A stretch of 64,000 bases of DNA from Roseibacillus sp. Lineage in GTDB: Bacteria > Verrucomicrobiota > Verrucomicrobiia > Verrucomicrobiales > Akkermansiaceae. The DNA lies in assembly GCA_051251855.1 (NCBI GenBank), contig JBPOGI010000007.1, positions 32,001 through 96,000 of the forward strand, written 5' to 3'. A model generated the notes under the pieces. The model did not search any database and had not been told where the DNA came from. It was given only the letters and a program-made list of their open reading frames with translations. The position numbers and the translations under genes were made by a program. This document shows positions 8,798-11,456 of this stretch, one piece after another (within the stretch, counting starts at the first letter, position 1; each line of letters starts with the position of its first letter).

Positions 8798-9376
8798 GTG
8801 AATAAATACAGGCTTGAGCCCGTTTCAACAATCGTGTCCGCCTTCCGCGCCCTTCCTCTTCTGCTATTGCCTCTGCTACTCGGCAGTTGCTCGACCTCTC
8901 GACTCGTCGATTCCGATCGGGTCCTTGACCCAGGGCCACACACGATCCGCTCCATCATCGATAGCGATATCCTGATTCCTGCCGACAGCTCTCTCCACGT
9001 CGATTATGCCGCCGGAAACCGCTTCTTCGTCCAATCCGGAGGGACCCTTACCGGCCTTTCCAAAGGAGTCCAGAGTTCAACCATCTACGGCGAAGAGGGA
9101 GCTCTCATCCCAACTCGCAGCAAAAAATCGACTCTTAAAATCGTCAACGTAAGCGACGCCGAACAAAGCTTCCGCGACCGCTTCAAAACTCTCTTGCCCG
9201 CCAATGCCACGCCCAATCGCTCCTCCTCAGGTACAGGGGTCGTTGTGGGCGGAGCCTTCTATGGAGGCGGCTATTATGGTCACGGGCATCGTTACCATCG
9301 AGCCAGGCGCCAGTCGTCCTCCTCTCGCTCGGTCTCAGTGAAACCCGACTCCTATCGCACCCGCACCCGCAACTAA
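8798..9376 (+). CDS. Hypothetical lipoprotein
   Basis: Lipobox-like LLGSC after a hydrophobic stretch; Gly/Tyr/Arg-rich tail. Confidence 0.6.
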   Translation: MNKYRLEPVSTIVSAFRALPLLLLPLLLGSCSTSRLVDSDRVLDPGPHTIRSIIDSDILIPADSSLHVDYAAGNRFFVQSGGTLTGLSKGVQSSTIYGEEGALIPTRSKKSTLKIVNVSDAEQSFRDRFKTLLPANATPNRSSSGTGVVVGGAFYGGGYYGHGHRYHRARRQSSSSRSVSVKPDSYRTRTRN

Positions 9377-9398
9377 ACAACACTACAAAAACAACACT

Positions 9399-9977
9399 AT
9401 GAAAACCATCCTCATCTCATCATTAGCTAGCCTCATCGCGCTGGCCTGCTCAGCTCAAGCCCAATTCGCAAACACCTCTGGCGGCGTGATGCTCGGCGGC
9501 GGATATCTCGAAAACCCCGAAAAGGGCTACGCCTTCGGCCAGCTTCGCGGCACTTTTTACGAAGACGACAGCTTCTCCCACACCGCTTTCCTTGAAATTC
9601 TTGGGCATGCCGATGATGCCGAGCTCACCTTCACGAAGGGAGGAGTGAGTTCCACCGAAGACGGCGACATCACCTTCGTCAACATCACCGCCAACTACGA
9701 ACTCGAAGCTAAGCTCTTTGGTCCCATTTCAGCCTATGCAGGTGGGGGCATCGGGGTGGAGATTGTCTCTGTTGACGACCGCTTCGACATCGTGCTCGAT
9801 TCCGACGCCAACTTTGTGGCTCAAGTCTTCATGGGGCTCCGCGCGGACTTCGGCAACGGCTTTCTCCTACAAGCGGGAGCCCGCTACCTGATGCGGGAAG
9901 ACTCCGAGGTTCTCGACAAACAATTCATCACTGAAGACAGCTGGGCCTTCGAAATCGGAGCTGGCTTTCAGTTCTAA
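9399..9977 (+). CDS. Small outer-membrane beta-barrel protein (OmpA/porin-like)
   Basis: Signal peptide, YAGGGIG strand and C-terminal GAGFQF. Confidence 0.8.
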   Translation: MKTILISSLASLIALACSAQAQFANTSGGVMLGGGYLENPEKGYAFGQLRGTFYEDDSFSHTAFLEILGHADDAELTFTKGGVSSTEDGDITFVNITANYELEAKLFGPISAYAGGGIGVEIVSVDDRFDIVLDSDANFVAQVFMGLRADFGNGFLLQAGARYLMREDSEVLDKQFITEDSWAFEIGAGFQF

Positions 9978-10055: not shown

Positions 10056-10763
10056 ATGAAACTCAAATATCTCCTCACTGGCTGCCTCTTGGCAAGCTTG
10101 GCCTGGGCTCCAGCCCGGACCTGGACCAGTTCGGATGGCGCGAAAACTTTTGAGGGTGACCTCAGGGAATTCGATGATGCCTCCGGCAAAGTCACCGTTC
10201 TCGTCAACGGCAAACAATTGGTCTTCACAAAAGACAAGCTCTCCGAGGATGACCAATCCTTCCTCGCTGAGTGGAAAGCCGAAGCCGACAAGCCGGATGC
10301 AACCGAAGTCCTCGAATCTCAAACAATCGGCAAAGAACTAACCGACAAAGTGCTCAGTCGCTTGGACGGCAAGAAGTTCAAAAAGGCCTCCATGGAAAAG
10401 GCCCCAGAGTATTACCTTCTCTACTTTTCAGCCTCTTGGTGACCCCCTTGTCGCGCAGGAGCTCCACAGTTAGTGGAGAAATATAACAAGCATATCGCCG
10501 AAGTTCCTAACGTCGAATTCGTTCACGTCTCACTCGACCGCGACGAAGACGCCGCTGAAGAATGGGCTGCCAAGGAACAATTCCCTTGGCTCACCATCAT
10601 GCCTGATAAAGTCGATCGCAGCGGCTTGCGGGATTACAAAACCACCAACGCAGTGCCTGAGTATCATCTCGTCGATGGCGAAGGTAATACCATCGTGAAA
10701 GGCACTTCTTCGGGAGCCGCCGCGTTTGCCAAAATCGACGAACTCGCTAAAGAGAGCAAATAA
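10056..10763 (+). CDS. Exported SHD1-domain thioredoxin-like (tryparedoxin/nucleoredoxin-type) selenoprotein, 235 aa, with Sec at UGA 10440-10442
   Basis: ORFs 10056..10442 and 10473..10763 are in the same frame. Reading through the TGA gives YYLLYFSASW-U-PPCRAGAPQLVEKY, matching the YFSAxWCPPC motif. N-terminal RTWTSSDG..LSEDDQ is SHD1-like. Confidence 0.85.
10462..10478 (+). promoter_or_regulatory. Candidate bacterial SECIS hairpin
   Basis: CTCCAC-AGTTA-GTGGAG forms a perfect 6-bp stem with a GU-containing loop. The loop begins 25 nt after the in-frame UGA. Confidence 0.6.
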
Positions 10764-10785
10764 ACGAAACCCCTTCCATTTCACG

Positions 10786-10818
10786 AACGGGCCTCCTGCA
10801 AAGGGTGCCCGTTTTTTT
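10786..10818 (+). terminator. Rho-independent terminator
   Basis: AACGGGC...GCCCGTT stem followed by a T run. Confidence 0.75.
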
Positions 10819-10948: not shown

Positions 10949-11347
10949 TTACTCCGAGTCGCTCTCCTCAGCCCAAGAGACTTCCTTGGCATCACCCCAA
11001 AGTTCTTCCAACGCGTAGGTTTCACGCATTTCTTGGTGAAGGATATGCACCATCACGTCAAAGTAATCCAAAACTACCCAGCGAGTGACAGCCTTACCCT
11101 CAGTATGAGAGGGACTATCCCCTGTTCGCTCGGCGACACCTTTGTTCACCTCACGCAGAATCGCCTTCAAATGAGGCATGGAACTCCCCGAACAAACGAC
11201 CATGAAATCGGTCAAGGTCGAGAGCCCTCGAAGATCGAGGATACGAACATCTTCTGCTTGAATTTCGGCGGCGGCCTTCGCGCATTCGATAGCGAGAGAG
11301 AGCCCTTTGACTTCGGTAGTTTTCACTTGTGGGAGCGAGTTTGCCAC
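10949..11347 (-). CDS. rsfS: Ribosome silencing factor (Iojap); start at GTG 11347 or 11326
   Basis: ILDLRGLSTLTDFMVVCSG, WVVLDYFDVMVH and R..Y.LE.LW. Confidence 0.93.
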   Translation of the reverse strand: MANSLPQVKTTEVKGLSLAIECAKAAAEIQAEDVRILDLRGLSTLTDFMVVCSGSSMPHLKAILREVNKGVAERTGDSPSHTEGKAVTRWVVLDYFDVMVHILHQEMRETYALEELWGDAKEVSWAEESDSE

Positions 11348-11383
11348 AAGAACCCACTTTCCCGAAAAACAGTTTCGAAAAAG

Positions 11384-11456
11384 TGGAGCATAGCGGATTC
11401 GAACCGCTGACCCCCTGCATGCCATGCAGGTGCTCTACCAACTGAGCTAATGCCCC
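11384..11456 (-). tRNA. tRNA-Ala(GGC); CCA not encoded
   Basis: GGGGCATTAGCTCAGTTGGTAGAGCACCTGCATGGCATGCAGGGGGTCAGCGGTTCGAATCCGCTATGCTCCA; G3:U70 pair and anticodon GGC. Confidence 0.96.

Follow-up and report, generated by a model that had tools for sequence, protein, structure and literature searches.

In the genome of a Roseibacillus sp., a TGA interrupts an otherwise open reading frame at the point where a thioredoxin-like protein should feature its first redox cysteine. The question is whether this triplet ends a protein, is read with a changed meaning, or encodes selenocysteine (Sec). The locus resides in a window of 64,000 nucleotides, the whole stretch of DNA that was analysed. Translation of positions 10056-10763 gives 128 residues, the TGA (10440-10442), 106 further residues and a TAA stop, the TGA being flanked by YFSASW and PPC. 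An earlier inspection of the letters, hereafter the sequence-only reading, had placed the TGA at the first redox-Cys position of W-x-P-P-C in one 235-codon frame, and the translation confirms it. The elements of the gene are:

10056..10763, + strand: complete gene of 235 codons, interrupted by one TGA and closed by TAA (frame translation; AlphaFold2 model).
10440..10442, + strand: TGA in frame, where Sec129 is predicted as attacking residue of W-U-P-P-C (column comparison in homologues).
10449..10451, + strand: Cys132, predicted resolving cysteine (invariant in 28/28 aligned homologues).
10656..10658, + strand: Pro201, conserved, likely cis, proline of the thioredoxin fold (invariant in 28/28 homologues).

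The role of Pro201 is presumably the one known in general for the thioredoxin fold. The read-through protein is modelled by AlphaFold2 with a mean pLDDT of 91.7 and a pTM of 0.78, pLDDT being low at residues 1-14. The reading preferred here, with a probability of about 0.8, is that of a 235-codon gene in which UGA would be decoded as Sec by means of SelB and a downstream hairpin, to give a predicted secreted SHD1-like/tryparedoxin-like protein, likely a periplasmic disulfide reductase. That the internal UGA specifies Sec is, judging from sequence comparisons, almost certain. No RNA data set is listed among the sequencing runs that contain this DNA. One short record from another study crosses 10410-10487 and lists no difference at the TGA, too little to count; a single contig covers the gene and shows no difference, but may be where the present DNA comes from, and is therefore not independent.

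The genes to which the Sec proposal had been tied, selA, selB, selD and that for tRNA-Sec, all reside in the genome. The first three score above their cut-offs, and selD itself has an in-frame TGA; tRNA-Sec scores 63.9 bits, the gathering score being 47. A paralogue of the gene, 46% identical, was found at C1:1583736-1584419, and displays the same W-U-P-P-C motif and an identical 17-nt hairpin.

Homologues carry either Sec or Cys codons at the column of interest. Matches at E<=1e-10 were found in 40 of 61 genomes, and TGA copies in 18. selB is present in 18/18 genomes with TGA copies, against 4/22 of the other matching genomes, closely related genomes not being independent in these counts. At the 30 loci from this search the Sec column reads TGA 22 times and TGC/TGT 12 times. 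TGA is present in 76 of the 77 matches obtained at E<=1e-40 from 401 genomes of the family, its position having been verified for fetched loci only. All the loci examined amount to 173 distinct DNA copies, 77 with TGA and 96 with a Cys codon (TGC/TGT). No other codon occurs, and the alternation of Cys and UGA expected by the sequence-only reading is thus observed in 173/173 DNA homologues. The frame past the TGA is open for 95-110 codons in 54/54 copies. In comparisons with eight close relatives, pN measures 0.14-0.27 downstream and 0.14-0.29 upstream of the TGA, pS 0.54-0.84. With pN far below pS, the downstream half appears to be under purifying selection, and the decay that would speak against a selenoprotein is not seen. 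The same TGA recurs across genera and in two families.

Tandem gene copies mark many relatives (L026, L028, L031, L032, L183, L189-L194, L199, L200, L205, L206). In several cases, the second copy matches the gene only downstream of about residue 63-100. In some, the W before Sec is changed to T or F, and a G-C replaces the C-G pair beside the hairpin loop.

Two structured elements lie past the TGA:

10462..10478, + strand: hairpin of bacterial SECIS type, with a stem of 6 bp and the loop AGUUA (10468-10472), whose G is at 10469 (conservation, covariation, folding).
10785..10818, + strand: bulged hairpin resembling a terminator, with T7 after it, directed towards the convergent rsfS (folding: stem -18.5 kcal/mol, z -2.5).

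The hairpin, CTCCAC-AGTTA-GTGGAG, has the sequence, the loop G and the spacing originally claimed. In the accessible text of PMC13188914, bacterial SECIS (bSECIS) elements are described by loops of 3-9 nt, stems of 4-16 bp, a G in loop positions 1-2, a distance of 16-37 nt from the UGA, and an MFE <= -7.5. The hairpin falls within all these limits, as scored by a script of our own and not by bSECISearch: loop of 5 nt, stem of 6 bp, G as second loop base, loop beginning 25 nt past the UGA, -7.9 kcal/mol for the stem-loop. Considered without its homologues, the hairpin region is no more stable than shuffled sequences (z -0.79; 39/200 shuffles equally good), and a simple bSECIS filter of our own is passed by 139/4000 random TGAs in the genome (3.5%). 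Weak as a single sequence, the hairpin therefore owes its significance to conservation across homologues.

Conservation is pronounced. The loop G and five or more of the six stem pairs are kept in 54/54 TGA copies found by protein searches, a count from which 22 metagenome loci were removed beforehand because they had been found by a pattern needing TGA and hairpin. The hairpin is kept in 2/96 Cys copies, 80 of which come from a scan of genome contigs with a Cys pattern, and are not an unbiased sample. In 22 aligned copies, 95.5% of the cells are paired, against 33-61% in slid controls, and 0/500 shuffles score as high. Compensatory double changes occur in 4/6 stem pairs, each represented by one sequence among related sequences. 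Synonymous sites across the hairpin are nearly frozen: the six hairpin codons show synonymous identities of 0.71, 0.85, 1.0, 0.49 (loop), 1.0 and 0.87 across 38 full-length copies, in which 194 other codons average 0.42. The SECIS-like hairpin of the sequence-only reading thus proves to covary, and to be nearly confined to TGA copies.

A terminator had been reported after the second half of the gene. A bulged stem followed by T7 is indeed present, but a consensus scan does not list the element at 10785-10818, and no + strand promoter was found either. Further downstream, and convergent, is rsfS (10949-11425), which is found downstream in three copies of the genus. Upstream, at 8798-9977, are a lipoprotein-like ORF and one for an outer-membrane beta-barrel (PF13505, weak). 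No functional link of these flanking ORFs (8798-9977, 10949-11425) to the selenoprotein was seen.

As anticipated, one gene has been split by annotation pipelines, and public records end at the UGA. Among 53 protein-database matches, 39 stop precisely with the W that precedes the UGA, Cys occupies the column in 11, and 3 have W or G. Records ended at the UGA include RefSeq entries from Roseibacillus ishigakijimensis and Rubritalea marina, and are named hypothetical or SLA1-domain proteins. By eye, the truncated WP_200391158.1 (Roseibacillus ishigakijimensis) corresponds to the N-terminal half of L025, a locus in a genome of the same genus. The finding corrects a systematic annotation error, the family being mostly stored cut in half in public databases.

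Split genes and halved records are also what would be seen if the TGA were a true stop, and the locus either a pseudogene or two genes, one encoding a 128-aa SHD1 protein and the other a 96-aa ORF starting from GTG at 10473. The second ORF would have its start codon within the hairpin and be devoid of both redox residues, and in the predicted model the cut lands mid-fold; these observations, the recurrence of the TGA and the intact downstream half make a true stop highly improbable. Equally improbable is that UGA is read as Trp, Gly or Cys, through a changed genetic code or leaky read-through. The sole tRNA with a TCA anticodon found in the genome is tRNA-Sec, other genes here end at TGA, Cys codons are the only alternative in DNA homologues, and W or G would remove the nucleophile. 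The three database proteins which favour recoding, having W or G at the Sec column (P0006, P0013, P0015), are most simply viewed as mis-assignments, gene callers having likely switched to codes 4 or 25 on short contigs.

The read-through protein is made of three parts:

10056..10115, + strand: putative signal peptide of residues 1-20, predicted to be cleaved; A-P-A precedes R21, and a lipobox is absent (by eye).
10116..10289, + strand: SHD1-like small beta-barrel domain, residues about 21-78 (profile and fold matches).
10311..10760, + strand: thioredoxin-fold domain, tryparedoxin/nucleoredoxin type (Pfam Thioredoxin_8), residues about 86-235 (PF13905, E 2.4e-14).

The signal peptide pattern, recognized by eye, starts with MKLKY and continues with a hydrophobic stretch up to A-P-A; homologues retain a hydrophobic leader with Ala ahead of RTWT. 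The SHD1 label given to the N-terminal domain by the sequence-only reading holds at the fold and profile level, but not at the Pfam cut-off. The best match in profile searches against the PDB is the SHD1 domain of Sla1 (2hbp, E 3.9e-4). With the predicted domain model as query, VIA-align aligns 56 residues to Sla1 SHD1 (Z 8.3, rmsd 2.3), the only chain of 48,161 at Z>=5, the next being at Z 4.9. Sla1 SHD1 is also ranked first by Foldseek (TM 0.76, E 0.014). The window protein is below the gathering threshold of Pfam SHD1 (PF03983), and gave no match; 5/28 homologues match at E<=0.01.

Assignment of the catalytic domain to the thioredoxin fold stands, with a refinement: profile E-values point to a tryparedoxin/nucleoredoxin-like rather than to a TlpA-like protein. 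PF13905 is matched by the window protein with 53.9 bits, the gathering score being 27, and by 28/28 homologues. In profile searches against the PDB, a nematode thioredoxin and tryparedoxins score E 1e-21 to 5e-26, ResA/TlpA 1e-12 or weaker; tryparedoxins and ResA are about level in Foldseek. The protein reaches no family cut-off in NCBIfam, where no selenoprotein model matches it, and a search of the protein-cluster Atlas returned only Verrucomicrobiota thioredoxin-like clusters.

These features suggest how the protein may work. SelB bound to the hairpin 25 nt downstream would decode the UGA as Sec. In the mature protein, Sec129 would attack as selenolate the disulfide of a target, Cys132 would resolve the mixed bond, and the membrane protein DsbD would re-reduce the resulting selenenylsulfide. 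Attack, resolution and reset by a donor are established steps of thioredoxin chemistry. Reducing thioredoxins typically have PP or GP between their two redox residues, and the direction of catalysis is taken from these general properties of CPPC/CGPC proteins. More speculatively, enzymes of envelope repair might be the clients, for instance the MsrA and peroxiredoxin lipoproteins of this genome, and docking on a partner might be the task of the SHD1-like domain. The genome encodes one DsbD-type protein, an MsrA whose leader is lipobox-like, and a candidate Sec-peroxiredoxin that is lipobox-like as well, which makes a path from DsbD through the selenoredoxin to repair enzymes plausible. Gene neighbourhoods are not conserved, and no redox partner was found in the 66 flanking frames scanned, out of 93 from 27 loci; DsbD and clients are therefore linked to the gene only by their presence in the genome.

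By analogy with reducing thioredoxins, a DsbD-fed reductase is the probable role. The presence of DsbD, the PP/GP motif, which in general marks reducing thioredoxins, and the Foldseek ranking of ResA-type DsbD/CcdA clients level with tryparedoxins all weigh against an exported selenoprotein that is not fed by DsbD, and works as an isomerase or oxidase of secreted proteins, as a direct scavenger of peroxide or sulfenic acids, or, like tryparedoxin, with a low-molecular-weight thiol. Such alternatives are rather unlikely, but draw on the lack of a genetic link to dsbD or any client, and on the closest solved relatives being tryparedoxins, which take electrons from trypanothione.

Tryparedoxins, nucleoredoxins and nematode 16-kDa thioredoxins (PDB 1ewx, 1fg4, 4fyu) provide the best profile and the top fold matches, and share a WCPPC-type motif with the protein described here. 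They are eukaryotic Cys enzymes, and tryparedoxins are cytosolic or mitochondrial users of trypanothione; the present protein is bacterial, features a predicted Sec, a predicted leader peptide and an extra domain, and is only 25-32% identical to them. ResA, TlpA and DsbE (CcmG) belong to the same fold superfamily, and like them the protein is predicted to be extracytoplasmic and fed by DsbD. In contrast to them, it lacks a membrane anchor, is not linked with genes for cytochrome c maturation, and scores far below the NCBIfam cut-offs (dsbE 40 vs 123; ResA 32 vs 170; TlpA 24 vs 230). With Sla1 SHD1 (PF03983, PDB 2hbp) the N-terminal domain shares the fold, as judged from the predicted model, and the pattern W-T...KLS..D, but identity is 21% and the score is below the Pfam cut-off. 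The yeast SHD1 domain binds NPFxD endocytic motifs. The gene offers a way into the question of which ligands bacterial SHD1-like domains recognize.

Thioredoxin-fold selenoproteins of the UxxC type are well known, and abundant in marine bacteria (Table 1 of PMC13188914; accessible text of PMC2398784), being among the commonest bacterial classes. The former table lists Trx (PF00085), thiol-disulfide isomerase-like (cd02966), Redoxin family (PF08534) and thiol:disulfide interchange (PF13098) proteins; the latter text describes 'Trx-like 1' (COG0526), with 321 sequences. The present protein resembles them in the predicted attacking-position Sec, in an in-ORF SECIS fitting the consensus, and in the marine habitat. 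It differs from the forms named in Table 1 of PMC13188914 in having an N-terminal SHD1-like domain, a predicted signal peptide and a tryparedoxin-type domain. SHD1, tryparedoxin, nucleoredoxin and Verrucomicrobi have 0 matches in the main text of that paper, and the SHD1-fused tryparedoxin-type architecture is absent from the 119-family selenoprotein catalogue. The GOS 'Trx-like 1' sequence set of PMC2398784 may already include fragments or members of the family. In the literature searched, mostly excluding subscription papers, no paper was found on SHD1 and selenocysteine, SHD1 and Verrucomicrobia, or Roseibacillus selenoproteins. The tryparedoxin-type, SHD1-fused, predicted exported protein is a new subtype within a known class of bacterial selenoproteins, and involves no new decoding mechanism and no new chemistry.

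Sec and Cys copies are intermingled in the family tree. The tree was made from 101 near-full-length rows (53 Sec, 48 Cys), partial matches and truncated records being excluded, the Sec/Cys column alone being masked, and the 22 pattern-found metagenome loci being retained. It needs 7 Sec/Cys changes, at least 5 of which are forced by starred branches, and monophyly of Sec copies is rejected (p-AU 1.7e-47). In a quick outgroup-rooted tree, based on 125 columns with 12 rows dropped and long branches present, a Sec-containing clade is found within the Cys diversity (SH-aLRT 99), and includes 15 Cys rows and one outgroup row. The Cys copies nested in the Sec clade suggest several Sec-to-Cys reversions. 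Because the same hairpin, at the same position, is common to every Sec copy, the simplest reading is probably that Sec was gained once and reverted several times. Cys codons without hairpin were confirmed on DNA in L034 and L039, where selB is present, and in L063, L038, L040 and L044, several DNA-confirmed Cys loci being located near the clade base or on long branches. The most deeply nested Cys rows (P0001-5, P0007-9, P0020) are known as proteins alone. The peptide PQLV, imposed by the hairpin, is lost in 8/9 of them, which argues for real reversion. A class-wide search for the DNA of P0001-P0005 found no close genome among 401, and their Cys codons are putative. According to the accessible texts of PMC1794560 and PMC13188914, Sec-to-Cys changes are rare in bacteria, and mostly limited to FdhA and SelD.

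The close Sec/Cys sister pairs of this family lend themselves to the question of which advantage Sec confers in the periplasm. A broader reading is somewhat less likely than not. The genes would form a family, so far uncatalogued, of tryparedoxin-type selenoenzymes that are exported and dock through an SHD1-like domain, in which Sec and SECIS were gained once in Verrucomicrobiales and Cys returned several times, also in Sec-decoding genomes; its members would be the reducing centre of an envelope redox network of marine bacteria, based on selenium and largely unannotated. If true, the close pairs would make the trade-off between Sec and Cys outside the cytoplasm directly testable.

Selenoprotein candidates in the genome (G000) are at least 16: nine loci and SelD, two SHD1-first genes, one with an SHD1 tail, and three ASPIC genes. 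Most have leaders, as judged by eye. The list is a lower bound, because the genome-wide TGA screen is noisy, and missed the known SelD and Sec-MsrA. The nine loci with in-frame TGA are C1:1403243, C1:1812084, C6:486626, C6:461808.., C6:712145, C8:303832, C9:31937, C10:234380 and C11:99365. They comprise FdhA, VPGUxxT type 2, DUF3179, MsrA, a metal-binding-like domain, peroxiredoxin, thioredoxin and two redoxins. The VPGUxxT type 2 candidate scores above the NF041383 cut-off, and resides just after selA. The candidate with SHD1 and thioredoxin in reverse order, on the minus strand at G000:C7:209450-210118 (L052), features by eye a leader, a T-U-G-P-C domain and an SHD1-like tail, and has no Pfam or NCBIfam match.

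Three FG-GAP/ASPIC-UnbV (CRTAC1-like) genes, at G000:C6:415249-417771, C6:420364.. and C6:424413.. (L053, L143), have an in-frame TGA in the motif D-L-U-S-x-x-W. ASPIC-UnbV matches at E<=1e-40 were found in 17/61 genomes, up to 16 per genome, and 86/86 contain TGA, counted in relatives anywhere in the match and not at a fixed position. selB is present in 17/17 of these genomes. ASPIC-UnbV selenoprotein candidates are absent from Table 1 of PMC13188914, and listed in S9 Table of PMC4807772. Elsewhere in the genome, at G000:C10:114076-115599, ten tRNA genes are arrayed compactly.
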